From: Candidatus Bathyarchaeota archaeon | Lineage (GTDB): Archaea; Thermoproteota; Bathyarchaeia; 40CM-2-53-6 | Direction of reading: 5' to 3' | Length of the DNA: 64,000 nt | NCBI GenBank assembly: GCA_005888745.1 | Contig: VBBS01000027.1 | Location: 55,045 to 119,044, forward strand | Shown: positions 1,651 through 38,236 of the stretch, piece by piece | Layout of the letters: each line of letters begins with the position of its first letter | How positions within the stretch are numbered: the stretch's first letter is position 1 | Position numbers and translations under genes: made by a program | Notes under the pieces: generated by a model | Databases searched by the model: none | Told to the model about the DNA's origin: nothing | The model's input: only the letters and a program-made list of their open reading frames with translations

Positions 1651-2997
1651 CTATTTTACGAAAACGAGCCCTTTCCCGGAGTCTATCTCGAAAGTCTCCG
1701 TGTCAAGCTTTGACGCGGACCCGTTCAGCTTCCGGACCTTCAATTCTCGCCCGTTCGGATCAGAATCGTCCTTGTCCAGATCGATAACGCACGAAGCCGT
1801 ATCCTCCAACCACTTCAACACATCCTTAGGAGCTTTCGAGAGATCCACCGTCAGGACCAGTGTCACACTCGAATCTCGCAGCTTGTCCAGCATCTCGCTC
1901 AATCGCTTGACAAGATCCTTGGGCGCAACCTTCGCAACAACCGGATCGATGGAGTCGAACAGAATCTTGGTCTTCTCGCCGATAAACATGGAACTATTCT
2001 TGACGAGGGCGTCCTGTATCGAATCGAAGTCAAACGCCTTCTCAACATAGTAAGGCTCAAAACTGAACGAGTCGGACTGCGACGAGAACCCGTCCACCAG
2101 TAAGAACCTGTATTGAGACTCGGCCTCCGAAGGATCCGCGCCCATCTTCTTCATCTGCTCCCTGAGCGCCGCCGGCGCCTTATCGTAAGTAACGAACATG
2201 CAAGGGTTTCCATGCTTCAGAAAACTGCTCGCGAGTCCGGAGCACAAAGTCGTTTTCCCAGAGCCTGGACTGCCATTCACAACCACGAGACCGGAAGATT
2301 CGAGGTTTCCTTGGGTAAGCTCGAAGATGTGGTCGAAACTCTGAGAGACCCTTGGAGCGCTGGGACGTTTCTGAGCCTCTTCTCGAGTCGGTTTCTCCGG
2401 CTTGTCGGCAGAGGGTGGGTAGAATTTCGGTTGGACAGTTTCCTTTGTAGGTTGCTCCACAGATTCGGGAGTTTTCATGGAGCGGACTGGAGTCGCTGGC
2501 TGTGGAGGTGCAACACTTGGCTTGTCTGGCTCAGGACCTTTCTTTCCGCCTGGAATGATCGTCATCGGCCTGCTTGTGGGGGTTGCTCTGGGTGGCACCC
2601 ATTCTGGACTGCTCTGCAGCGCGAACCCTCTCGGCTGCTCCCCGCCAAACGAGTTCGCATCGGGTGGCAAATCTTTGAGCAGAGATTGAAGCAGTCTACT
2701 GAGAGAACTATCCTCGTCTGCCTGGGTAGGAGCGGGGGAGCTTCTCGGAGGCTGATAGAAACTGGTGCTCATGGGTTGAGGGCTGGGAGGAGTAGGTGAG
2801 CTTGATGAAATAGGAGGAGCTTGGACCGGAGTCGACGTGACAGGAGGGGTAGGTGCCGACGTTGATACTGATGTGGACGCATCTTCCGTTCCCTGGCCTT
2901 CTTTCTCGTCTTTCTTCTTGCGTCCGAACATGGTGAGTATTCCTATAACAGTGAAAAGGGTCCAGATGGGATCCAGACTTGCAAGTTGGACTAGCAT
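1651..2997 (-). CDS. membrane-anchored KaiC/RecA-superfamily ATPase with long Pro/Ser/Thr-rich linker
   Basis: N-terminal hydrophobic helix followed by GRKKKDEK; ~200 aa P/S/T-rich low-complexity region; C-terminal domain has Walker A VVVNGSPGSGKTTL and KaiC-like architecture. Confidence 0.7.
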   Translation of the reverse strand: MLVQLASLDPIWTLFTVIGILTMFGRKKKDEKEGQGTEDASTSVSTSAPTPPVTSTPVQAPPISSSSPTPPSPQPMSTSFYQPPRSSPAPTQADEDSSLSRLLQSLLKDLPPDANSFGGEQPRGFALQSSPEWVPPRATPTSRPMTIIPGGKKGPEPDKPSVAPPQPATPVRSMKTPESVEQPTKETVQPKFYPPSADKPEKPTREEAQKRPSAPRVSQSFDHIFELTQGNLESSGLVVVNGSPGSGKTTLCSGLASSFLKHGNPCMFVTYDKAPAALREQMKKMGADPSEAESQYRFLLVDGFSSQSDSFSFEPYYVEKAFDFDSIQDALVKNSSMFIGEKTKILFDSIDPVVAKVAPKDLVKRLSEMLDKLRDSSVTLVLTVDLSKAPKDVLKWLEDTASCVIDLDKDDSDPNGRELKVRKLNGSASKLDTETFEIDSGKGLVFVK

Positions 2998-3178
2998 TCG
3001 TTCAACCCATACCTAGTGATCATTCACTCTCATCCAAGGATTCTTGTCTCTCAGGAAGTATCTCGAACAGGAGAACACAGCATGAGTTGTTCTTGGATAG
3101 GAGTGATGTTACCTTAGTGAATGGTCATCGGAAACAGCCTAGATACCACACGCACTCCAATATTATTCATCACTAGAA

Positions 3179-3751
3179 CTATCTCTTTGTCTTCAGAATA
3201 TCCGACTTTGTCAGAATGCCGACAAGGTTCTCACCCTTCGAAACGAGGACGCCGTAGTTGCTCTGCAAAAGTCCTAGAACCAGATCGAGTGGAGTATCGC
3301 TGTTGACCACTGGTAATGGCGAATCCATGATCTCGCGAACCTTGAGGCCCAGGACAGATTCTAAGGACTCACCCCGAGCAGCCCGATCAAGAATCGTTTT
3401 CTCCGAAATGCTTCCGACACATCTTCCGCTTTCGAAAACAGGAAGCTGCGAATAGCCCCTACGTCGCATCAAGTCAACAGCATCCCGTACAAGCTGTGTT
3501 CTGGCCACGGAAACGACGGGACGACTAATGAGCTCATCCACCCGACGCGCGGGGCTCTCGACCCCCGCCCTTTCCAAGGCGCCGAACAGTCTCTGAACGA
3601 TAGAATAAGATGGGTCCACGGAACCGGCTTCTATCTTTGCTATAATCGACTGACTTACTCCAGCGGATACAGCGAGTCTCGACTGTGTTAGTCCCAGCTC
3701 TTTCCTCTTCTTCGGAATCTCCCCCAACGACGGTAGCATGCCCCCGAACAT
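3179..3751 (-). CDS. HTH (XRE-type) transcriptional regulator with tandem CBS domains
   Basis: N-terminal LGLTQSRLAVSAGVSQSIIAKIE helix-turn-helix, followed by two CBS-like repeats. Confidence 0.8.
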   Translation of the reverse strand: MFGGMLPSLGEIPKKRKELGLTQSRLAVSAGVSQSIIAKIEAGSVDPSYSIVQRLFGALERAGVESPARRVDELISRPVVSVARTQLVRDAVDLMRRRGYSQLPVFESGRCVGSISEKTILDRAARGESLESVLGLKVREIMDSPLPVVNSDTPLDLVLGLLQSNYGVLVSKGENLVGILTKSDILKTKR

Positions 3752-3766
3752 GTTGGACCGTGCTCT

Positions 3767-3807
3767 TATTCCTATCGGAATACATTAGGGCTATTCCTAA
3801 CGGAATA
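3767..3807. promoter_or_regulatory. two 16-bp palindromic operator-like sites, TATTCCTATCGGAATA and TATTCCTAACGGAATA, in a divergent promoter
   Basis: Perfect inverted half-sites TATTCC/GGAATA at ~3767-3782 and ~3792-3807, 25 bp centre-to-centre, between the regulator start (3751) and the metE-N start (3858); a TATA-like TTATATAA sits at ~3824-3831. Confidence 0.5.
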
Positions 3808-3857
3808 TGAGTACGATAGAACTTATATAATTAGAATAACGAAACGGCAACGAAAAC

Positions 3858-4841
3858 ATGTCTCCGGAAATCCAGCTTGCGGGAATTCACCCGCGGTCAG
3901 AGAGGCTAATTGAACTCACCCGGTCGTATGAGCGGGCAAAAGCTAGCTGGAGCCAAGTAGAAGTCCAACTTGGGCAGGAGACAAGGGAAGTCATCAAGCT
4001 TCAGGAGAGCCTCGGCTTCAAGCACTTTTCCGACGGTTCCTTAGACTGGCAGGACCAACTTAGACCTGTCACGCGATCTCTGAAAGGAGTGGAGTCTGGA
4101 ACCCGATACTCAAGATGGTTTGACACTAATACATTCTACCAAAAACCCATCATCGTAGGCAAGATTTCCGCCGGCGACATCGACCCCAAGAACTTTCTTC
4201 GAGCCGAACTCTTGACAGAGAAAAGGGGTCGAAAAGTCACTCTCCCCGGACCGTACACATTCTCTCAACTGTCAGAAAACAAGCACTACAAGAATTATGC
4301 TGATTTGCTCTTCGACATTGCAATTGCCGAGCTCGAGATTATTCGGAGGCTCAAGAACGAGGGCGTTACCCTCTTCCAACTATCGGAGCCCTGTTTAGTC
4401 TATCAACCCTACAGGGAGAGCTTCAGGGACCATTCAGAAGTTGAGCAAGCCCTTGGAGCAATCCGTTCCCTAGTAAGAGAGAAGCCAGGAGACTTTCTGG
4501 TCCAGACCTATTTCGGCGACGCTGCCCCCTTACTCCCTGACCTTTTAGATCTGCCGGTCTTCGGTGTTGGAATTGACCTGTTCGAAACTGACGTTTCGTC
4601 GCTCAGCGAACAGGAAAAGACTTCGAAGGCACTCGTGTTGGGAGTTGTCGACTCACGTGAATCCTTCGTTGAAAATCCGAATTGGATCGCTGCCACGGCG
4701 AGGAAATTCTCCGAGAAAGTAGATGCCCGCGACCTGGTTTTTGCTTCCAATTCAGACCTGAAATTTGTGCCTCAAGGGATCGCGAACCAAAAGTTGGAGG
4801 CGCTGTCTAAGGCATCGGAACTGTTCGAGGAGAGCCGATAG
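3858..4841 (+). CDS. MetE-family (cobalamin-independent methionine synthase) N-terminal-like barrel domain protein
   Basis: UROD/MetE-like fold motifs (LPGPYTF, LFQLSEPCLV) but no Zn-binding His/Cys; stop TAG is immediately followed by the ATG of the catalytic-domain gene. Confidence 0.7.
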   Translation: MSPEIQLAGIHPRSERLIELTRSYERAKASWSQVEVQLGQETREVIKLQESLGFKHFSDGSLDWQDQLRPVTRSLKGVESGTRYSRWFDTNTFYQKPIIVGKISAGDIDPKNFLRAELLTEKRGRKVTLPGPYTFSQLSENKHYKNYADLLFDIAIAELEIIRRLKNEGVTLFQLSEPCLVYQPYRESFRDHSEVEQALGAIRSLVREKPGDFLVQTYFGDAAPLLPDLLDLPVFGVGIDLFETDVSSLSEQEKTSKALVLGVVDSRESFVENPNWIAATARKFSEKVDARDLVFASNSDLKFVPQGIANQKLEALSKASELFEESR

Positions 4842-6047
4842 ATGCCGAAGCTCTTCCCCGTTCAAGAGATAGGGAGTCTCGCAAAGCCCAAGTGGAGAAC
4901 GAAGGGGTTGCGACAACAACTCTCTTCGCAGGACCTCTCCGAGGCTGAAGAATGGGCTACGAAGCTGGGAATTCAGGACTTCCATGACCGAGCAAAGAGC
5001 ATTTTCAAGACCGGTGACGACAAGATGCGGGTCAAAGCGATTCTTGAACTCTCCACCTTGTATGGGCTGCGCCTCTTCGAAATCGCGGGTGTAGACAACG
5101 AAGGTGTCGGGGGAGAACAGCAACGAGTCGAAATGTACGAGCACGTAATCAAGGCCGTACAGGGAATGAACCTCCTCGGCCACGTCCACTCCTTTGACAA
5201 CAAGTACTTCAACAAGGGAGTTGCAGAGTCGAAGATCTCTAGAAAACATCCTATCTACGTGCCTGAATTTCTTGATGTCAAGAAATACGCCCACCGGGAC
5301 GTGAAGGTGCCGATTACCGGACCGTACACACTAGTAGACTGGTCCTTTAGCGGGTACTACATCCAGAAGCAACACGCCTCCTCTCCCAAGACACGGAGGA
5401 TCGAGGCAAAGCGCGAATTCCTCCTCGATATCGTAGAGCAAGTCATACGACCCGAGATCCGAGACCTAGTTGATGCGGGAGCCTCTTGGATACAGATAGA
5501 TGAGCCGGCGGTGACTACTCATCCAGAACCTCAGGAAATGGAGCTTTTCGTTGAGGCGTGGAATGAAACGGTCAAAGGGTTCAACTGCAAATTCAGTGAC
5601 CACACGTGCTACCCATCCGAGATAGGATACAAAGTGCTCTCGGAATACGCGCCGAAGCTAGACAAGTGCGACCAGCTCGCGTTGGAGTTCGCCAACCGAG
5701 ACACTTCGCGTCTTGGAGTCGACAAGGACTCGCGGGAAGGCTACGGCGACCTCAAACATTTCGTCGATGCTGGTTTCAGCGGAGAATTCGGGCTCGGTGT
5801 CGCCCACGTACACGATTTCACAGGAAACGTGTCCTCCGGTGCAGGAAAATCCGTGGGACGAGACTTTATCGAGTCTCCGGAGCTAGTGCGGGACCGTCTT
5901 CTGTTCGCTACCAGGATTGTAGGGGATCCGGCGAAAATCTGGGCGAACCCAGACTGTGGACTTCGGACCAGAACTTGGGATGTGGCCTTCGCGAAGCTCG
6001 CAAACGTCACGCATGGAGCCGAACTGGCAAGGGAGACATACCAGTGA
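4842..6047 (+). CDS. metE: cobalamin-independent methionine synthase, catalytic (C-terminal-type) domain
   Basis: ITGPYTL, WIQIDEPA, DHTCY and NPDCGL (Zn-ligand Cys) motifs. Confidence 0.8.
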   Translation: MPKLFPVQEIGSLAKPKWRTKGLRQQLSSQDLSEAEEWATKLGIQDFHDRAKSIFKTGDDKMRVKAILELSTLYGLRLFEIAGVDNEGVGGEQQRVEMYEHVIKAVQGMNLLGHVHSFDNKYFNKGVAESKISRKHPIYVPEFLDVKKYAHRDVKVPITGPYTLVDWSFSGYYIQKQHASSPKTRRIEAKREFLLDIVEQVIRPEIRDLVDAGASWIQIDEPAVTTHPEPQEMELFVEAWNETVKGFNCKFSDHTCYPSEIGYKVLSEYAPKLDKCDQLALEFANRDTSRLGVDKDSREGYGDLKHFVDAGFSGEFGLGVAHVHDFTGNVSSGAGKSVGRDFIESPELVRDRLLFATRIVGDPAKIWANPDCGLRTRTWDVAFAKLANVTHGAELARETYQ

Positions 6048-6949
6048 GACTAGGTGATCGGGCGAGGCGTCATAACCTCGTTACGGTTGAACTTATTCCG
6101 GACAGAGTGGTTACTAGCGATTTGGCTCTCCTTAGGGGAAGAGTTGACGCTATCACCGTTCCGGCCTTGCGGAATGGCCATAATGACCCAAGTTATCCAA
6201 AGTCTTTCGCGATAACGCCCCAACGCCGAAGTCTTGCTTCCGCATCTATCATCAATAAGGCTGGGATAACCGCTGTTCCCTCGCTAACATGTCGTGATTG
6301 CAGCAGGCTGGACTTGTCAACTGTCTCGAACCAAGTGGAACAAGGGCTTGAGAACGTACTGATAGTCTACGGGGACCCTTATCCAGAGCCTCGTCCCGGG
6401 ACCTATGAGTTCACCAAAACGAACGAGCTAATTCGGGAGGTCTCCTCCCTAAACGACGGAAACGACCCATGCATTGGGGCAGTGACAAACCAACACGCTG
6501 ACAACAGGGAAGGCGAAATCTCCCGAACGATATCACGAGTAGACGCGGGCGCGGACTTTATTGTCACAAACGTCGCCTTCGACTCGGAGAGTGTACTTGA
6601 CCACAGGGATTCCCTACTGGAAGCAGGGTTAGACGTGCCACTCTTCATTCAAGTCTCTATTCCGCTCAACCTAGACAATGTGTTGTTTGTGAGCCAGAAA
6701 TTCGACATACCCGTCCCGGCTCAGGTCAGGAGAAAACTTCTGGAGGATCCGACTGGAGGAAGTCTCGCTGTTGCCGCTGATGCCTACGAGGCCCTACGTG
6801 GAGAAGCGAATGGTATTCACTTCTCATACCTGTTCCGACAACGAAATCCGATTCCCACTTATCGCCATCTGCTGGAGATAATTGGGATAGCAGGCCCGAC
6901 ACTGGCTCCGCTAGCCACGTCTCCTGTGAAAACATATCCCGTTGTCTAG
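6044..6949 (+). CDS. metF: 5,10-methylenetetrahydrofolate reductase
   Basis: VELIPDR, ITAVPSLTCRD and DFIVTNVAFD motifs resemble MTHFR; probable GTG start at 6044 overlaps the metE stop (GTGA). The track ORF 5606.. extends out of frame through metE and is not believable upstream of ~6044. Confidence 0.7.
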   Translation: MRLGDRARRHNLVTVELIPDRVVTSDLALLRGRVDAITVPALRNGHNDPSYPKSFAITPQRRSLASASIINKAGITAVPSLTCRDCSRLDLSTVSNQVEQGLENVLIVYGDPYPEPRPGTYEFTKTNELIREVSSLNDGNDPCIGAVTNQHADNREGEISRTISRVDAGADFIVTNVAFDSESVLDHRDSLLEAGLDVPLFIQVSIPLNLDNVLFVSQKFDIPVPAQVRRKLLEDPTGGSLAVAADAYEALRGEANGIHFSYLFRQRNPIPTYRHLLEIIGIAGPTLAPLATSPVKTYPVV

Positions 6950-6983
6950 AGTTCTTCGAACGATCAGTGCAAGAATCAGAGTG

Positions 6984-7469
6984 TTAACTGTCTTGCTTGG
7001 CTGTCTCGACCGGTAGTGGAGCGTCTTCCCCAAGCTGGAGTACTTTCTTCAGTTCTTTTTTCATGAGTGATGGGTCATGGTTGAGATTGAAGTAGTCTGC
7101 GAACGTTGTAGTCGTCCTTAGCATTCTGGTTCTTCCGATCCTCTCGTCATTAATCAGGTCCATGTCCTTCAGCTGTTTCACATGGCCGTAGGCCAGTTTA
7201 CCGCGAACCCGTACCACGTAGGACTGGGTGACAGGCTGCTTCAGAGCTATGAATGATAACGTCCGAAGGGGTCCTGGTGTTAGAAGCGGTCTGTTCGCCA
7301 GTTTTCGAACGTGCTTAGCGAATTCTGCCTTTAGCTGCATGACAAAGCGTCCGTCGGGAAGTTCCACGACTTGAATCGGACTACTGGCGGTTTTGTAACG
7401 TTCAGAAACCGCCGTTGCGATTCCGCGTATCTTGTCCTCTGATCTAGCGCCTACGACAGACCCGATCAT
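6984..7469 (-). CDS. scpB: segregation and condensation protein B
   Basis: Winged-helix ScpB-like sequence; directly downstream of scpA and smc in the same orientation. Confidence 0.7.
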   Translation of the reverse strand: MIGSVVGARSEDKIRGIATAVSERYKTASSPIQVVELPDGRFVMQLKAEFAKHVRKLANRPLLTPGPLRTLSFIALKQPVTQSYVVRVRGKLAYGHVKQLKDMDLINDERIGRTRMLRTTTTFADYFNLNHDPSLMKKELKKVLQLGEDAPLPVETAKQDS

Positions 7470-7554
7470 CTTCAGGTCTAGTGGTCTTCCGGATACGTAC
7501 AGTGCAGCCTCGCAGAGCTGCTGCTGTAGGTCAGCAGTTTTCTGCTGAGCTGTG

Positions 7555-8232
7555 TTAGTCGAAACTTGTGTTTCCGTCGTCTCTCAGCTCGATTTCGATA
7601 TCACCGAACTCTAAAGGCTGGGCGAGGCCCACTCTTCCTTCTACTGCCAAGAATAGCAGCATGATGAACATTCTGACCGCTTCGAGAGGGTCTCCCTTTC
7701 CAAGGAGGGTTAGGAAGGACAATTTTGTTCGCGCGGATCCAGCTTTTGCTACTAGTCTCTGGAGAAACGCTTTGATATTCTCTTCAATCTTGACGAGGAA
7801 ATCGTCGACTTGTTCAAACACCTCGGGCGTCCTGAGAACCATCTGTGCGTTTGCCGGGAGCATTCTCTCCGCCGTCAACACCTCCAGTAATCCTTTGATG
7901 ACTTCCTCAACAGATGTGGTTGTCGACTCGTAGCGTAAGGGAAAGGATAGGGGAGGGGGAACGAAGTCTGTCGGCCTCTCGAGGGGGGGCTTCGGCGGTT
8001 CCTCCATCTTGAGGATTAGTTCTGATTTCATGCGCAGAAGGATTGCTGAAGAGAGAAGGGCTGTCCCAGAAACGGAGAAGTCGATGAACCCTCGACCCCT
8101 CATCTCATGAAGAAGCTCCTCCAGTATGTTTGCGAGGTTTACGTCCCACGGTTTGACGCGGTGAAGATGGATGAGGTCGAAGAGAACGGCATATGGTGCC
8201 TTCAGCCAGTACGCCTCTTCGTGAAGCGTCAA
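7555..8232 (-). CDS. scpA: segregation and condensation protein A (kleisin)
   Basis: ScpA-like N-terminus; overlaps the smc stop by 4 nt. Confidence 0.7.
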   Translation of the reverse strand: MTLHEEAYWLKAPYAVLFDLIHLHRVKPWDVNLANILEELLHEMRGRGFIDFSVSGTALLSSAILLRMKSELILKMEEPPKPPLERPTDFVPPPLSFPLRYESTTTSVEEVIKGLLEVLTAERMLPANAQMVLRTPEVFEQVDDFLVKIEENIKAFLQRLVAKAGSARTKLSFLTLLGKGDPLEAVRMFIMLLFLAVEGRVGLAQPLEFGDIEIELRDDGNTSFD

Positions 8233-11200
8233 TTGTTCTCCTCCCTCGAGGGCAGGGACACGATCTGACTGCTGCCCTTGTCGATGAAGACTCCGAACAC
8301 CCTCTCCGCCCTCGATATTGTCGTATCCTTGAGCGAGATTACTATGAACTGGGACATGATACTCCTCGTCCGAAGGAGGGTCGCTAGGCGTTTTGCGTTT
8401 AACACATCCAAGTGTGCGTCAATCTCGTCCATTACGTAGAATGGCATGGGATGGATTTGTTGGAGTGCTAGAAGGTAGCAGACCGTTGAGACAGACTTCT
8501 CTCCTCCACTCGCGCTCCCAATCGTAAGCTCTGTTTTTCCGGGGAACTGAAGCAGGACGTCGAGTCCGCCTTCAAACGGGTTTTCAGGATTGTCCAGGAC
8601 CATTCTTCCGTTTCCCTCACCAGTCATCTCGCGAAAAATGCTCTGGAATGTCTCGTTGACCTTGTGGTATGCGCTCATGAACGTGTCAAGCTTCTTCCTC
8701 TCGAGCTCGTTCATGAAGTCGAGGATAGCCAGCTTCTCTCTTTCGAGTTCTCCGATCCTAACTGAGAGATGTTTGTATCCTTCTTTCTGTGATTCGTATT
8801 GTTGGGCAGCGAGCTGGTTGATAGCACCTATCTCGTCCCGTTCCTGTTCGAGGACGCGTTTCATATCTTCAGCCTCCTTGATGAGATCCGGGTGAGTCTC
8901 GAGCGGCGTCTCGAATCCAAGGCCTCTAAGTTGTCCTTTGAAGATTGTTAGTTGAGCGTCGACTTCCCTTAGGCCCGCCTTTAGATCGGTCACGCTTGCA
9001 TTGAGTGGATCCATCATTTGCAGAAGTTTCCGAGTTGCTTTTTCGACTTCCACAAACTGTTCTTCGTACTTCTTCCTCTCATCCCCAACGCTGTCCAAAT
9101 TTCGGACCAGCCGCTGCTTTTCCTCGTTGAACTTTTTCATCTCTTTCTCCAATGTTTCGAGTCGTTCGTGCGCTTCTTTGGCTCGGGCCTCTTCGCGATG
9201 AATCTCAGAGTCAAGCGAGCGCAGTTGTATTCGGATCTGGTCGATTCCCGGCCTCAGGGTCTCGAGAGTAGACTGTTGGGAGGAGAGACGTGTTTCTAGC
9301 TCGAGCTTCTCTCGGAGAATGAGTTGGTTCTCGGTGGTGGCTTGGTCTCGCTCCGTTTCGAGTTGAGAGAGCGCTGACCTTCTGGAATCAATCCTCAGCC
9401 TCGTTCTTTCCTCTTCTATGACCGCGAGCCGCCTCTTCATCTCCGCTTGTTTCTCCGCGGTCTCCTTCAACAAGACTTGTTCTTTCGCCATGGAGTTCTG
9501 GAGGCTGTCAATTCGCCGGGTCGTCTGTTGCAAGAATGTTCTTGTTCTCTCGAAACTCTTCTTGGCAAGTTCTACGTCCCTTGCCAAGGCCTCTCGGGTC
9601 TTGCTCGCGGATACTCGGTCTTCCAACAGCTCGTTTAGCTCAATCTCGATACGGTCAACGTCGGACCGTGAGCGTTGCACAACGGTCTCCAGCGATTTCA
9701 CTGTTTTCTCGAGGCTTTCAAGTGCAGTGGATCGGGGAACTAGGTTTGAGATCTCGAGCGGGGCTCTATAGTAGCCGCTCTCGAGGCCTCCTCCTGGCTC
9801 GTAAAGGTCTCCGCTGGTTACGACGCATCTTTGTCCCTTGGATGCTGTCAGGAACGCTGCTCTTTGCGTCGTGGCGAGTACAGTATCGCCGAAGACGAAT
9901 TTGACAGCGGGGGCAACTGACTTGTCGGACCGTATTACCTTCGAAAGCGGACCAATTATTCCGGAGACGTTGCCAGCGTCGGGCTCCAGATCCGAGAGTT
10001 CAAGATCTTCTATCGGAACGATCTTGACGCGTCCAAGCTTAGTACGTTTCAGGCTTTCGACGCACCGGATTGCTACCTCGAGGTTTTTCACAACTAGGGC
10101 TTTCATCCAGCCGGCGCTGGCTGCCTGTATTGCCTTACGGTATTCTTCGGGAAACTTGACGAGATCTTCTAGACGGCCGTAGACGCCTTTCAGAGCGCCT
10201 TCATCAGCCATCTCTTCGATCTTCTCGATAGCTTTGTCTTCTGCTCCCATGCTGTCCGCTAGGATCATTTGTGTGTTGAATTCCACCACGGTGACTCTTG
10301 CCTTCTTTGCGACGTCGAGGGCTTCGTCGATCTCTTTTCTGCGCTGGTCCTTGAGTTCACTGTATTCTTTTGTTTTCTGCTCGATTGATTCGAGCCGTTT
10401 TTCCTCTTCCTTCTGAAGTTTCTCCATTTCGCGGATTCTATTCTTCAGCTCTTCTGAGAGCTGGGCGAACTCTTTCTGGCGGGCTTCGAGGGTTTGCAGA
10501 TGGCTGGCGGTTAGGTCGAGTTTTGTCGAACTGCCCTTGCTTTGAGCGGTTAGGTTTGAAAGTTCCTTTCCCAGGCCGTCGATCTCGTCCTGGACTTCAC
10601 GCAGTTTCTTGGCGTCGAGGTTGAGAGACGATCGGGTGTCGGTAAGCTTTTGGCCGATTTTTTCGACCTTGAATGTGGAATCCTCTAGCTTGTCCTCTAG
10701 GATTTTCTTGTGTGAATGGAGACTTTTGATCGAGCTGGCAAGTGGTTTGACTGAGGTTTCCATCTCTTCCGCCTGTTTTGTGAAGGCTTCGCGCTGTCTT
10801 GCGCGGGTTGTGACCAGGTTCTTCGTTGTTTCCGCGGCGGATTTTGCTTCGACGATGCCCTTGCTGGCTTCTGCGATAAGTCTTTCGAGATCGAAGAGTT
10901 CTTGGTTTCCCTGGGTGACTATTTTCTCTTCGAAGCTTCGTCGGTCTTGTTCGATCTTTGCTCGCTGTTGAGTTAGGTCTTCTCTTTCGTGTCTCACCTG
11001 AGAGAGCTTGACCTGTTCCTGCTCGAGGGTCTGTGACATTTCCTGATGCCGGTTTTCGAGTGCAAGGATCTGGGCGGAGAGGATGCGCGCTTGCTGGCTG
11101 TTTATCTCGGTCTTGAGAAGATTGAACCTGAGAAGGTCGTTTCTTTCTCGTTCCAGCTGTTCTATTCTCTGTCTCACCTCATCAACTCTCGCAGCGGCGA

Positions 11201-11765
11201 CTTTGAGGTTCAGATCGGCCTCTTGTAATTGCACTCTTGCCTCGGCCTTCTTTGTCTCGAAGGTTCCGATTCCGATTAGGCTTTCAAGAATCCTTCTTCG
11301 TTCTTCTGTACTGATCTCCGCGAGGCGAGTGATGGCGTGTTGTGAAATAAGGTTGAAGCCGGTGACTTGGATGTCGGCTGAGCTCATTATGTCCTGGACT
11401 TGTTTTCTGGAGAGGCGTCGTCCGTTAAGGCGGTAGATTCCTTCTCCGCCTTTCGAGAACTCTCTGGATATAGTTACGAGGTCAGAATCTACGGGCAGCT
11501 TTCGGTCACTGTTGTCGAACTGCACTGCCACGTAAGCGGATCGTGCTCCTTCGCCCTGTGACTTGTGGACTAGGTCGGATAGGCTTCTGCCTCGGAGTTC
11601 TCTGGGGCTTAGCTCACCGAGCGCGAACTTGAGACTGTCCAGGATATTGGACTTGCCCGATCCGTTGGGTCCGGTTATGACTGTGAATCCTGTTCCGAGG
11701 TTGATGGAGACCTTCTTGTTGAAGGTCTTGAATCCTCGGATGTCGATTCTCTTGATGAACACCAA
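8229..11765 (-). CDS. smc: chromosome segregation protein SMC
   Basis: 1178 aa; N-terminal Walker A GPNGSGKSN, long coiled coils, hinge, C-terminal signature LSGGEKS and Walker B; TTG start. Confidence 0.9.
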   Translation of the reverse strand: MVFIKRIDIRGFKTFNKKVSINLGTGFTVITGPNGSGKSNILDSLKFALGELSPRELRGRSLSDLVHKSQGEGARSAYVAVQFDNSDRKLPVDSDLVTISREFSKGGEGIYRLNGRRLSRKQVQDIMSSADIQVTGFNLISQHAITRLAEISTEERRRILESLIGIGTFETKKAEARVQLQEADLNLKVAAARVDEVRQRIEQLERERNDLLRFNLLKTEINSQQARILSAQILALENRHQEMSQTLEQEQVKLSQVRHEREDLTQQRAKIEQDRRSFEEKIVTQGNQELFDLERLIAEASKGIVEAKSAAETTKNLVTTRARQREAFTKQAEEMETSVKPLASSIKSLHSHKKILEDKLEDSTFKVEKIGQKLTDTRSSLNLDAKKLREVQDEIDGLGKELSNLTAQSKGSSTKLDLTASHLQTLEARQKEFAQLSEELKNRIREMEKLQKEEEKRLESIEQKTKEYSELKDQRRKEIDEALDVAKKARVTVVEFNTQMILADSMGAEDKAIEKIEEMADEGALKGVYGRLEDLVKFPEEYRKAIQAASAGWMKALVVKNLEVAIRCVESLKRTKLGRVKIVPIEDLELSDLEPDAGNVSGIIGPLSKVIRSDKSVAPAVKFVFGDTVLATTQRAAFLTASKGQRCVVTSGDLYEPGGGLESGYYRAPLEISNLVPRSTALESLEKTVKSLETVVQRSRSDVDRIEIELNELLEDRVSASKTREALARDVELAKKSFERTRTFLQQTTRRIDSLQNSMAKEQVLLKETAEKQAEMKRRLAVIEEERTRLRIDSRRSALSQLETERDQATTENQLILREKLELETRLSSQQSTLETLRPGIDQIRIQLRSLDSEIHREEARAKEAHERLETLEKEMKKFNEEKQRLVRNLDSVGDERKKYEEQFVEVEKATRKLLQMMDPLNASVTDLKAGLREVDAQLTIFKGQLRGLGFETPLETHPDLIKEAEDMKRVLEQERDEIGAINQLAAQQYESQKEGYKHLSVRIGELEREKLAILDFMNELERKKLDTFMSAYHKVNETFQSIFREMTGEGNGRMVLDNPENPFEGGLDVLLQFPGKTELTIGSASGGEKSVSTVCYLLALQQIHPMPFYVMDEIDAHLDVLNAKRLATLLRTRSIMSQFIVISLKDTTISRAERVFGVFIDKGSSQIVSLPSREENN

Positions 11766-19504: not shown

Positions 19505-20707
19505 ATGAGCCAAGAGTCCGGTTTGCAGAGAGCACCGCTTCTAGATGCATTGAGGGAAGAGCTTAGAGGACTGGATCAGCAGGATTTACTGTGGCGCATC
19601 AAGACCCTTCAAAGTCCATCTGCGCCGCACGCCAAAGTGGATGGCAAGAACGTCATTGTTCTCTGTTCGAACAACTATCTTGGACTGGCAAACCATCCCA
19701 AGCTCAAGAAAGCAGCTATCGCTGCAACTAGAAAGTACGGAGCGGGGAGCGGGTCGGTTCGAGTTATCGCCGGGACTATGGACTTACACGCTAAGCTGGA
19801 AAAGGAACTAGCGGCTTACAGAGGAACCGAGTCCTCGATTACCTTCCAATCTGGTTACGCAACGAATCTTGGGACGATCATGTCCTTGGTCGATGAACGT
19901 GATCTGATCATCAGCGATGAACTGAACCACGGCAGCATTATCGATGGCTGTCGCTTGACGAGAGCGGAGAGACGAGTCTACAAGCACAAAGACATGGGCG
20001 ATCTCGAGAAACAGCTCCAGGGAACAGAACGGTTTCGGAGGATTCTAGTCATAACTGACGGAGTCTTCAGCATGGACGGAGACATAGCACCACTGAAAGA
20101 CATTGTAAAGCTGGCGCAAGAACATAATGCGATGACCTATGTTGATGATGCTCACGGAGACGGTGTTCTCGGTAAGAACGGCCGTGGAATAACGAATCAC
20201 TTCCATCTTGAAGGGAAGGTGGACGTTGACATGGGAACCTTCTCGAAGGCCTTCGGATGCGTCGGAGGATACGTGGTCGGCTCGAAAGACCTCTGCGTAT
20301 ATCTCCAGAACAAGGTCCGAAGCTACCTACTCTCCGGGTCCCATCCACCAGCTGTCGCAGGCGCATGCATTGCAGCGCTTCAGCTCGTCCAGAAACAACC
20401 GTCCTTGGTCAAGAAGCTCTGGGACAACACCCACTACTTCAAGAAAGGCCTGAAAGACATAGGCTTCGATACCGGGAATAGCGAGACCCCTATTACTCCA
20501 GTAATAGTCGGAGAGGCCGGGAAGGCTCGCGAACTAGCAGACAATCTCTTCAAACTAGGAATATTCGTCCTTCCGATCGTCTTTCCGATGGTCGCTCGGG
20601 ACAAAGCTAGGGTCAGGACCATAGTGACAAGTGCTCACACGAGAAAAGATCTCTACACAGCATTGAGAGCCTTTGAGAAGGTTGGCAAACAACTAGCACT
20701 AATCTAA
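19505..20707 (+). CDS. kbl: 2-amino-3-ketobutyrate CoA ligase / glycine C-acetyltransferase (AONS family)
   Basis: PLP-dependent class-II aminotransferase fold; Lys motif TFSKAFG; adjacent and divergent to tdh. Confidence 0.85.
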   Translation: MSQESGLQRAPLLDALREELRGLDQQDLLWRIKTLQSPSAPHAKVDGKNVIVLCSNNYLGLANHPKLKKAAIAATRKYGAGSGSVRVIAGTMDLHAKLEKELAAYRGTESSITFQSGYATNLGTIMSLVDERDLIISDELNHGSIIDGCRLTRAERRVYKHKDMGDLEKQLQGTERFRRILVITDGVFSMDGDIAPLKDIVKLAQEHNAMTYVDDAHGDGVLGKNGRGITNHFHLEGKVDVDMGTFSKAFGCVGGYVVGSKDLCVYLQNKVRSYLLSGSHPPAVAGACIAALQLVQKQPSLVKKLWDNTHYFKKGLKDIGFDTGNSETPITPVIVGEAGKARELADNLFKLGIFVLPIVFPMVARDKARVRTIVTSAHTRKDLYTALRAFEKVGKQLALI

Positions 20708-36948: not shown

Positions 36949-38061
36949 CTATTGACCGATACCGATGGTGTTGCCGATACCGGCGACTATTATAGTATCG
37001 CCCGGCTTGCTCCGTTCCAGAATGAGGCTCTTGATCCTCTCGATAACTTTCTCTCCAGCCTCCATTATCTCCTTCTTCATCGGCGTAATCGCTTCCTGAA
37101 TACTCTCCTTTACGATAACAGCGTAGACCGGAATCTTGTGGACTGTTGCTTCCTGTTCGATCTTGAACCGTTCCGTGCCGACGCCGCCGATAGCCGCCCC
37201 AATTCCTTCGCTGATCTCGCCTGAAGTCTCGCCCTCGAACTTCACCGCCGCATCCACCATGACCACCATCGAAACCTTACCAACATTTTCTTCGATGATC
37301 GTCTTGATGGCGTCCCCCGGTTTCCCAACGTTTCCGCCAGGACCCTCCGCCTTCAAAGCGATCACTCTACGGTCCTCCATCATCGTCTCCGCAACAACAA
37401 CGTCCTTCTCGACCTTCCGCTTCTCCTTGTCCTTCATCAGCCTCGAAGCAACAAGTGGTCCGATTCCATCCCCGATAGGCTGGCCCTCAGCGAACGCCTT
37501 CGCGGCGCCCAAGTAGGCCTCAGCCTCTTGGATAATCAGTGGAAGCAACGCTTGAAGCTGGATAATGATGAAGATACTGTTAGTCTTCTTCCCCATCAAG
37601 TAGAAGTGTCGGATAATCCTGTAGATCGTGTTAAGAGCCCAAGAGGCCTCCACCAAGTTCTCCAGGTTCATAACCTGAGAAGAGTCCGCGCCGGGCGCGA
37701 TCCTTCGAACATCCTCCTTGAACTTCGCATCTCGAACATCCAGCAAATGATCGATCTTGCCGACGATTCCAGCTGGGTCCATATCGACCGGCGAGATTAG
37801 GAATTGCTCCATCAACACATTGATTTGTGGACCGGGATCAGTTGAAGGTTTTCCGATTTCCTTGACGGTCTTGAGCGTTAGATCCTTCGCTGAGTTTCGG
37901 AACATGTCCAGTCTCCGCAATCCCTTGTCGATCTCCCAAAGGAACTGGCGCATCTGCAGCTTCTGACCAAACCCGAAGAACAGTGCGATGAAGAGAACAG
38001 TAAAGAGTAATTGACTGATGGTGCCCAGATTTCCCAGGATCGCATCGAAAGGTGTAGCCAA
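36949..38061 (-). CDS. membrane-anchored hypothetical protein (archaeal DUF1512-like)
   Basis: N-terminal TM, 370 aa, conserved-looking globular domain; no catalytic motif recognised. Confidence 0.45.
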   Translation of the reverse strand: MATPFDAILGNLGTISQLLFTVLFIALFFGFGQKLQMRQFLWEIDKGLRRLDMFRNSAKDLTLKTVKEIGKPSTDPGPQINVLMEQFLISPVDMDPAGIVGKIDHLLDVRDAKFKEDVRRIAPGADSSQVMNLENLVEASWALNTIYRIIRHFYLMGKKTNSIFIIIQLQALLPLIIQEAEAYLGAAKAFAEGQPIGDGIGPLVASRLMKDKEKRKVEKDVVVAETMMEDRRVIALKAEGPGGNVGKPGDAIKTIIEENVGKVSMVVMVDAAVKFEGETSGEISEGIGAAIGGVGTERFKIEQEATVHKIPVYAVIVKESIQEAITPMKKEIMEAGEKVIERIKSLILERSKPGDTIIVAGIGNTIGIGQ

Positions 38062-38236
38062 TTAGCCAGGGCTCCGAAATCTAACCGATTATTCCCGTCT
38101 GAATGTTATAAACGTTGATCCCTAAGACTAGCCCAAAGTAATCCGAAAGATATCCGACAGGAAAACCGTTACTTCTTGTTGAAACAGAAAATGAGGTTGG
38201 CAGCGGTCTAAGCTTCGCGTGGGCTTTCGCACCACA

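Follow-up and report, generated by a model that had tools for sequence, protein, structure and literature searches.

Genes and Promoter Elements at the Regulator Locus

The present work concerns a divergent promoter region within a 64-kb stretch of Bathyarchaeia DNA (referred to below as the window, i.e. the whole stretch that was analyzed; coordinates are window positions unless another locus is named). This region separates the gene for a protein with a helix-turn-helix (HTH) domain and a pair of CBS domains, here called the regulator, from an operon for methionine synthesis comprising metE-N, metE, and metF. An initial annotation of this DNA had described two 16-bp palindromes, lying 25 bp apart upstream of a TATA-like box for the metE-N/metE/metF transcript and overlapping the likely promoter of the regulator gene, and it had interpreted the HTH-CBS protein as a repressor, sensing S-adenosylmethionine (SAM) or AMP, that controls methionine synthesis as well as its own expression. 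Our analyses have located both palindromes (O1 and O2) at exactly the positions given there, together with the TATA-like box, and they have additionally identified a candidate third site (O3), overlooked by the initial annotation, in which the metE TATA box forms one half of a weak operator. The genes and promoter elements of the locus are as follows (BRE, transcription factor B recognition element; aa, amino acids).

3179–3739, minus strand: regulator gene; 186 aa, N-terminal Cro/C1-type (XRE) HTH and C-terminal CBS pair (Bateman module)
3767–3782, no strand: O1, strong palindromic operator TATTCCTATCGGAATA, 28–43 bp upstream of the regulator ATG; putative autoregulatory site
3792–3807, no strand: O2, strong palindromic operator TATTCCTAACGGAATA, 14 bp upstream of the metE TATA box; putative anchoring site
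3808–3822, plus strand: spacer of 15 bp with GTAC (3811–3814) and a BRE-like AGAAC (3818–3822)
3823–3838, plus strand: O3, candidate weak hybrid operator TTATATAATTAGAATA, whose left half is the metE TATA box
3823–3830, plus strand: metE TATA box, TTATATAA
3858–4841, plus strand: metE-N, first gene of the operon; MetE N-terminal-domain-like protein, 327 aa, Pfam Meth_synt_1 at 78.9 bits
4842–6047, plus strand: metE; core MetE, cobalamin-independent methionine synthase of the catalytic type, 401 aa, Pfam Meth_synt_2 at 74.9 bits
6053–6949, plus strand: metF; methylenetetrahydrofolate reductase, Pfam MTHFR at 59.8 bits

O1 and O2 are both palindromic over 16 bp, and the 25 bp that separate their starts leave a 9-bp gap between them. 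O1 overlaps a TATA-like element of the regulator gene (GAATAAGA on the minus strand, ~3764–3771), and the right half of O3 is the conserved operator half-site AGAATA (3833–3838), located 3 bp downstream of the metE TATA box. The flanking genes agree with the original description, but the length of 106 bp given for the divergent region presupposes translation of the regulator from the first ATG of its open reading frame (ORF), at 3751; because most homologues begin at the sequence MLPSL, which corresponds in the alignment to the ATG at 3739, the latter is most likely the start codon, and the intergenic region would then measure 118 bp. On the other side, the TATA box begins 35 nt ahead of the metE-N start codon, and a nearly leaderless metE-N mRNA is predicted.

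The exact palindrome TATTCC-N4-GGAATA is found in the 64 kb only as O1 and O2, compared with no occurrence in 100 dinucleotide-preserving shuffles and an expectation of 0.003 from base composition. The single half-sites TATTCC and GGAATA together number 42 in the window vs. ~31 expected. With 2 mismatches allowed, 3 further operator matches are present elsewhere in the window, and this number is at the level of chance (shuffle mean 1.7). One of them, at 20491, was rejected as an operator and sits within an aminotransferase gene. Another one (38090–38105, TATTCCCGTCTGAATG), which is statistically at chance level as well, has one perfect half-site and is flanked by a TATA-like TTTATAAC (minus strand, ~38106–38113) and the start of a DUF1512 gene (36949–38061, minus strand); its position relative to both is typical for a repressor site.

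Conservation of the Operators in Related Loci

Homologues of the regulator were collected by a protein-based scan limited to one genome per species, which yielded 80 loci (cited individually by L numbers) with regulator identities from 97% to 43%. An operator palindrome with at most 2 mismatches is present 24–55 bp upstream of the regulator ATG in 70 of the 79 loci that have enough upstream DNA, and in 50 of these it lies at -42/-43; the same test succeeds at 0.65% of random positions. The palindromes are in this way tied to the regulator gene, as the initial annotation had supposed. Four loci adjoining TiaS (L069, L074, L075, and L078) have neither a methionine-pathway neighbor nor the motif. 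In the distant homologues the right half-site runs directly into GAATATAAA or GAATTTAAA, the equivalent in the window being GGAATAAGA. The TATA box of a leaderless mRNA is expected ~27 bp before its start, and because GAATATAAA and GAATTTAAA occupy this position, we read them as the TATA box of the regulator, which thus follows GGAATA in the distant homologues as it does in the window. The feature conserved throughout the family would be an operator that overlaps the regulator's own TATA box (O1 in the window), and such an arrangement implies negative autoregulation, in agreement with what had been suggested for this promoter.

The closest relatives of the window are 21 loci of the metE type (regulators at least 62% identical, with intact flanks), which have the gene order metF-metE-metE-N followed by the divergent regulator; the gene order of the window is conserved in L001–L023. 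Alignment of their intergenic regions with that of the window (22 regions, aligned on the TATA box) indicates that O1, O2, the TATA box, and the O3 half-site have been kept in all of them while the flanks have diverged. The conservation of both palindromes in relatives, which had been proposed as a check on their function, is therefore found in every locus of this gene order. O2 is conserved in 22/22 regions, and the distance from its ATTCC to CTTATATAA is invariant at 29 bp. The metE TATA box is the consensus CTTATATAA in nearly all 22 (C is replaced by T in L019), and the spacer columns GTAC, A.A, and C that precede it are at least 90% conserved. After the TATA box, an (A/G)GAATA half-site with at most 1 mismatch is present in 22/22 regions; O3 starts exactly 31 bp after O2, and the half-site offset of 31 bp is likewise fixed in 22/22. 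The spacing between O1 and O2 is 25–28 bp in 13 sequences and 34–36 bp in the other 9, with no intermediate values, and the two classes differ by about one helical turn. We propose that O1 serves the promoter of the regulator and O2 that of metE, a division of roles that the initial annotation did not recognize. In members of the class with the wider spacing (L012–L015; e.g. L013 at 3276–3291), a degenerate palindrome, TATTCGTTCAGGAATC, fills the gap between O1 and O2, making three sites ~17–18 bp apart.

The 31-bp pairing of a strong site with TATTAA-N4-RGAAT is not limited to metE. It is also present at HcyBio promoters, where, read on the regulator's strand, the strong palindrome lies 31 bp from N-ATTCY-N4-TTAATA, and at metK promoters that do not adjoin the regulator gene (L062 at 3945 and 3976; L040 at 3426 and 3457). 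The weak site of these target promoters reads TATTAA or TTATAT, followed by N4-RGAAT, and has the TATA box as its left half. In the HcyBio-type loci the strong operator overlaps the TATA box of the regulator and lies 31 bp from the weak site of the target; a single strong operator thus appears to serve both promoters, and the metE clade would have split these roles between O1 and O2.

Genes Linked to the Regulator and to the Operator Layout

Comparison of the loci suggests that the divergent neighbor of the regulator varies by lineage and is almost always a gene of methionine or SAM metabolism. In addition to the metE type, HcyBio (PF01837, with a CBS pair of its own) and a NIL-ferredoxin are the divergent neighbors in 25 loci; an archaeal SAM synthetase (MetK) is adjacent to the regulator in 8 loci and lies one gene away, with its own sites, in 2 loci (L040 and L062); and an enzyme of the O-acetylhomoserine sulfhydrylase type is adjacent in 8 loci. 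In L058 a sulfhydrylase-type enzyme is located further along the divergent cluster, behind its own site.

The layout was also searched for in DNA alone, by scanning public metagenome contigs with the pattern ATTCY-N4-RGAAT-N16-TWWTAW-N4-RGAAT. This pattern is present once in the window and is absent from 100 shuffles, even with 2 mismatches. The scan gave at least 121 matches in at least 120 stretches, and each match was classified by the gene that starts 30–420 nt downstream of it. A gene of the methionine, SAM, or homoserine pathways lies downstream in 90 of the 121 matches listed, and the counts among these matches are as follows (PLP, pyridoxal phosphate).

MetE-N/MetE: 45
HcyBio: 23
Threonine-synthase-like PLP enzyme with a zinc ribbon (ThrC-like): 9
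Archaeal MetK: 6
Bacterial-type MetK: 1
Sulfhydrylase: 3
Homoserine dehydrogenase: 2
MetA: 1
Probable members (solute-binding protein, weak PLP-enzyme match, MetE-like protein without a Pfam match): 5
Other or no gene: 21
Too little downstream sequence: 5

No regulator gene is adjacent at 41 of the listed matches with a classified downstream gene, and these sites would therefore need a regulator encoded elsewhere. The retention of the palindromes at the metE loci, the neighbors of the regulator in other lineages, and the genes recovered by the scan all agree with the control of methionine synthesis that had been put forward for the window.

A number of further observations were made on these loci. 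The ThrC-like enzyme (410–415 aa, with an N-terminal zinc ribbon; L083, L090, L106, L109, L114, L138, L148, L169, and L200, and also L059) may be a threonine synthase under homoserine-pathway control, or it may belong to an O-phosphohomoserine route to homocysteine. A MetE-like family without a Pfam match (358–370 aa, starting MV.SYDVGSLPL) follows the operator layout in L115, where the ORF begins 61 nt after 10780, and likewise in L187, at position 4466 (positions of the re-oriented loci); it shares with core MetE only the motifs IDEPA and P-x-CGL (BLASTP E = 3e-4) and may be a divergent methionine synthase. L155 carries two full layout matches 1270 bp apart (2193 and 3463 of the re-oriented locus), the second of which precedes HcyBio, and the 400 nt that follow the first contain no start of an ORF longer than 150 aa. 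At the sulfhydrylase promoters adjoining the regulator (L055, L056, L061, L076, L079, and L080), a different, conserved inverted repeat, ATAACG-N-CGTTAT(A), takes the place that the weak half-site has at other targets; it lies on the sulfhydrylase side, ~16–31 bp upstream of the strong operator, and could represent either the binding site of a second factor or a TATA region that is read on both strands. Genes for an ABC ATPase and an ABC-2 permease follow the regulator in most HcyBio-type loci (L039-type, ~580–2600 bp downstream of the regulator start) and could belong to the same unit, e.g. as a methionine-related transporter. A motif-like sequence that recurs ~1.9 kb downstream of the regulator in these loci (L039 at 6926) was discarded as a site, being part of the coding sequence of the ABC-2 permease (…IIPVGIM…).

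The HTH-CBS Regulator Family

The regulator matches Pfam HTH_3 (PF01381) over residues 14–59 with 40.4 bits (cut-off 23) and, following it, CBS (PF00571) twice, with 81 bits in total. Its homologues comprise at least 150 full-length clusters at 50% identity (876 hits in a representative library at E <= 1e-10), and they are found in Bathyarchaeia, chiefly from soil and sediment metagenomes, as well as in genomes labeled Aenigmatarchaeota and Micrarchaeota. Databases name members of the family only as "predicted transcriptional regulator" or "CBS domain-containing protein," and no NCBIfam model is specific to the family. In a family alignment of 127 representatives of 50%-identity clusters, the recognition helix S29-Q30-S31-x-I-A-K35-x-E37 and the T-Q preceding it are nearly invariant, which is consistent with a conserved DNA specificity.

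An AlphaFold2 model built from the 127-sequence alignment has a predicted local distance difference test score (pLDDT) of 95.7 and places helices at residues 7–14, 19–26, 30–38, and 45–61, whereas a model built from only 22 close homologues is poor (pLDDT 66.8). In a profile search of the PDB, the N-terminal part matches 434 Cro, HigA, HipB, MBF1, and an immunity repressor. The model aligns with solved CBS pairs over ~125 residues with a root-mean-square deviation of 2–3 Å (Foldseek E ~1e-10), and sequence, profile, and fold searches found no solved PDB structure that spans both the HTH domain and the CBS pair. In most metE-type loci (L001–L023) the regulator gene is followed by a gene for a KaiC-like ATPase, which in the window (448 aa, 1651–2997, minus strand) lies 181 bp downstream of the regulator stop codon.

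The second CBS domain contains the ribose-binding motif G-h-h-(T/S)-x-x-(D/N) in the form G174-I-L-T177-K178-S-D180 (GILTKSD), and in the first domain T replaces D (GSISEKT). Among the 127 representatives the motif of the second domain has G in 127, T or S in 126, and D in 121 with N in the other 6. S97-Q98, E/D113, and K/R178 are also nearly invariant across the family. S97-Q98 aligns with D444-Q445 in the SAM-binding module of human cystathionine beta-synthase (the sequence used is 100% identical to that of PDB 4L3V), a pair of residues that we take to line the SAM-binding site; this alignment serves as a lead and not as a test. The ligand of the CBS pair is probably SAM acting as a co-repressor; we favor SAM because the regulon spans homocysteine synthesis, methionine synthase, and SAM synthetase, for which it would be an end-product signal.

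Proposed Mechanism and Alternative Explanations

Taken together, these results make it likely, in our judgment, that the biosynthesis of methionine and SAM is under feedback control by the HTH-CBS protein, which would act by repression through three sites, with SAM as its probable co-repressor. Sequence comparison gives the sites with their positions and conservation and shows which genes make up the regulon; it is from these results that we infer physical binding, cooperativity, repression as opposed to activation, and the identity and direction of effect of the ligand. The target expected of a dimer with a Cro/C1-type HTH is a 16-bp palindrome with half-sites 10 bp apart, and the half-site centers of the palindrome present in the 70 loci noted above have this distance. 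The protein would bind (T)ATTCC-N4-GGAAT(A), probably as one dimer per palindrome. Occupancy of O1 would bring about negative autoregulation by blocking the TATA element of the leaderless promoter from which the regulator is expressed. A dimer bound at O2 may help a second one to load onto the weak O3, since the 31 bp between them, about three helical turns, would place both on the same face of the DNA. O3 is the likely point of repression: a dimer located there would exclude TATA-binding protein (TBP) and transcription factor B (TFB) and thereby turn the metE-N/metE/metF operon off. The CBS pair would sense an adenosyl metabolite, most probably SAM as the co-repressor. Repression is favored because the metE TATA box matches the consensus, so that the promoter should not need an activator, and because a site encloses the TATA box at the promoters of the regulator and of its targets alike. 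Among the points tested none contradicts the interpretation given in the initial annotation, and most of its testable points have been confirmed.

Several observations weigh against this interpretation. The recovery of metE, HcyBio, and metK by the metagenome scan is partly circular, as the pattern was derived from those promoters; the classes that had no part in building it are the ThrC-like enzyme, MetA, homoserine dehydrogenase, sulfhydrylase, bacterial-type MetK, and distant MetE-N proteins (33–43% identity). The window contains no further operator and no other methionine gene, and tblastn of the window with metK, sulfhydrylase, HcyBio, NIL-ferredoxin, hom, and PALP-enzyme queries gave no match. 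The TATA half of O3 matches the operator consensus poorly, and its conservation could partly reflect the needs of the promoter. The position of O2, ahead of the BRE/TATA region, is one at which activators bind in archaea (PMC6737238), and it would suit an activating or dual role at the targets. As regards the ligand, the CBS pair matches AMP/ADP/ATP-binding, cyclic di-AMP (c-di-AMP)-binding, and SAM-binding modules about equally in both sequence and fold; it has no specific similarity to the CBS pair of HcyBio/MJ0100, which binds SAM and methylthioadenosine (MJ0100, E ~5e-5), and it is not specifically related to the HcyBio CBS pair of the same lineage.

The alternatives differ in which part of the scheme they replace. 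One, to which we give a lower but appreciable probability, leaves the DNA side as it is and has the CBS pair sense S-adenosylhomocysteine (SAH), methylthioadenosine, AMP/ADP/ATP, or c-di-AMP instead of SAM. The CBS pair of MJ0100 binds both SAM and methylthioadenosine, sensing of energy charge (AMP/ADP/ATP) has been reported for CcpN and AcuB, and the solved CBS modules closest to that of the regulator in sequence and fold include the AMP/ADP/ATP-binding AcuB and MJ1225 and the c-di-AMP-binding DarB/CbpB, for which NCBIfam also gives a sub-threshold match (CbpB). However, a coherent methionine/SAM regulon, with SAM synthetase and de novo homocysteine synthesis among its members, suits an end product better than it does energy charge; SAH hydrolase (a gene that was not looked for) would be the expected center of a methyl-cycle regulon induced by SAH; and a phosphate ligand is weakly disfavored by the near-invariant acidic E/D113 and by the alignment of S97-Q98 with D444-Q445. 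It is unlikely, in our estimate, that the regulator instead activates its targets, or acts both ways, by binding O2 and recruiting TBP/TFB when methionine or SAM is low, with O1 still repressing the regulator gene and the ligand releasing the protein from DNA. The center of O2 precedes the predicted transcription start by ~53 bp, and O2 ends 14 bp before the TATA box, a position reported for the sites of archaeal activators (PMC6737238); and the fixed distance from O2 to the TATA box, together with the conserved spacer, would suit stereospecific recruitment. Yet promoters with the consensus CTTATATAA, which is present in nearly all 22 regions, are usually strong without an activator; the RGAAT half-site that follows the TATA box in the 31-bp register recurs at metE, HcyBio, and metK and has no obvious role in activation; and the weak site includes the TATA box itself.

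The two explanations that dispense with the regulator as the DNA-binding protein or with binding to DNA are much less probable. That a different protein binds the palindromes, or that they are promoter or structural elements unrelated to the regulator, seems to us very improbable. Adjacency of genes is by itself no proof of which protein binds, but the motif stays at a fixed offset from the regulator gene across lineages, irrespective of the neighboring gene, it is absent along with the methionine neighbor from the TiaS-adjoining loci, and its geometry is that expected for a Cro/C1-type HTH dimer; with 42 occurrences in the 64 kb vs. ~31 expected, its half-site is not a general promoter feature. 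Least credible of all is an action at the level of RNA through a hairpin, attenuator, or riboswitch in a leader transcript. A 131-nt region does fold better than its shuffles (z = -3.25), as any pair of palindromes would, but both TATA boxes lie downstream of O1 and O2, which should thus stay outside the transcripts, no relevant Rfam match and no riboswitch was found in 3000–7200 at E <= 1, and the arms are kept as sequence, with no compensatory changes, while the N4 center and the spacers between sites vary. A scan for bacterial promoters and terminators was uninformative, the host being archaeal.

Organization of the Target Operon and Neighboring Genes

The methionine synthase of the window is split into two genes, one encoding the MetE-N-like protein and the other the catalytic protein, with the TAG of the former directly adjoining the ATG of the latter (4839–4844). 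The product of 3858–4841 is matched by NCBIfam methionine synthase models below their cut-offs, and that of 4842–6047 by the NCBIfam methionine synthase model PRK01207 with 232 bits, below its cut-off of 399 bits. For metF, the long ORF from GTG 5606 (447 aa) overlaps metE by ~440 nt, and its MTHFR match begins only at residue 212; GTG 6053 is probably the start. Directly downstream of metF, on the opposite (minus) strand, is a chromosome-condensation cluster of ScpB, ScpA, and SMC (6984–11765), which accounts for the strong AT skew at 8–16 kb.

Relationship to Known Regulators

Five groups of characterized systems resemble the proposed regulator in part. CcpN of Bacillus subtilis consists of an HTH domain and two CBS domains and represses gapB, pckA, and sr1 under the modulation of ATP/ADP. 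The resemblance lies in the fusion of an N-terminal HTH to an adenosyl-sensing CBS pair and in a repressor with operators that overlap promoters; CcpN, however, is bacterial, controls gluconeogenic genes, and responds to adenine nucleotides, whereas the family described here is archaeal, has a Cro/C1-type HTH_3 domain, acts on methionine/SAM genes, and, as proposed, blocks the TATA box. No chain named CcpN is among the 45 PDB profile hits (E <= 0.001) and no CcpN model is among the NCBIfam hits; no direct comparison with CcpN was made. MetJ of Escherichia coli is similar in the end-product co-repression of met genes and metK, in autoregulation, and in the use of cooperative adjacent sites, which is proposed here as well. 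It is nevertheless not homologous, being a ribbon-helix-helix protein that binds tandem 8-bp metboxes (AGACGTCT) and carries SAM on its DNA-binding domain; the fold found here is HTH_3 with CBS and the operator is TATTCC-N4-GGAATA. MetJ is confined to the gamma-proteobacteria (PMC1282579). The targets of SahR, of SAM riboswitches, and of other bacterial methionine regulons overlap with those found here (metE, metF, metK, and genes of homocysteine synthesis), but riboswitches act in RNA, where our analyses give no Rfam match and place the sites outside the transcribed region, and SahR, an ArsR-type protein that SAH releases from DNA, is unrelated (PMC4239095).

Within the archaea, repressors that block TBP/TFB or RNA polymerase are exemplified by MDR1, LrpA, Phr, TrmB/TrmBL1, SurR, and NrpR, some of which switch between repression and activation depending on the position of the site. 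Their operators overlap or follow the BRE/TATA region and compete with TBP/TFB or RNA polymerase; the placement found here is of the same kind, with O1 over the TATA element of the regulator and O3 containing that of metE (relative to predicted transcription starts). They differ from the present family in their folds (winged helix, Lrp, and TrmB) and in their ligands. We know of no other case in which a weak operator built round a TATA box is held 31 bp from a strong operator. The CBS pairs of cystathionine beta-synthase (PDB 4UUU) and MJ0100/HcyBio (PDB 3KPB) share with the regulator the CBS-pair fold and the T-x-x-D motif (Foldseek E ~1e-8, TM ~0.7–0.8 on the target), a similarity no greater than that to AMP- or c-di-AMP-binding pairs; in those proteins the module exerts allosteric control over an enzyme, and no DNA-binding domain is attached to it. 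HcyBio with its CBS pair is itself located beside the regulator in many lineages, as a putative target.

Biological Significance of the Regulator Family

We found no description of the HTH_3-CBS family, or of any archaeal regulator of methionine/SAM genes, in the literature covered, which is incomplete. The regulator appears to be a feedback repressor from an uncharacterized family that is distinguished by a weak operator built around the TATA box. Whether this family represents the first SAM-responsive master regulator of methionine/SAM metabolism in archaea, using a strong operator three helical turns from a weak operator converted into a TATA box, is a proposition to which we give an even chance. 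If it is correct, the family would fill in archaea the role that MetJ, SahR, and SAM riboswitches have in bacteria, and the regulator would compete with TBP for a shared stretch of DNA, with a single strong operator serving two divergent promoters in some lineages.

To our knowledge, there are very few archaeal transcription factors for which the regulon, the ligand, and the operator layout are all known. The present work provides a defined motif, a 31-bp spacing rule, a candidate ligand, and a list of targets (viz. metE, HcyBio/NIL-ferredoxin, metK, sulfhydrylase, metA, hom, and the ThrC-like gene), all of which can be tested, and feedback control of the methyl donor in archaea would thereby become open to experiment for abundant uncultured lineages. 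The motif may also serve as an annotation tool that flags methionine-pathway genes of unknown family, such as that of the 370-aa MetE-like protein without a Pfam match, and it can aid the reconstruction of sulfur amino-acid metabolism in the genomes of Bathyarchaeia.

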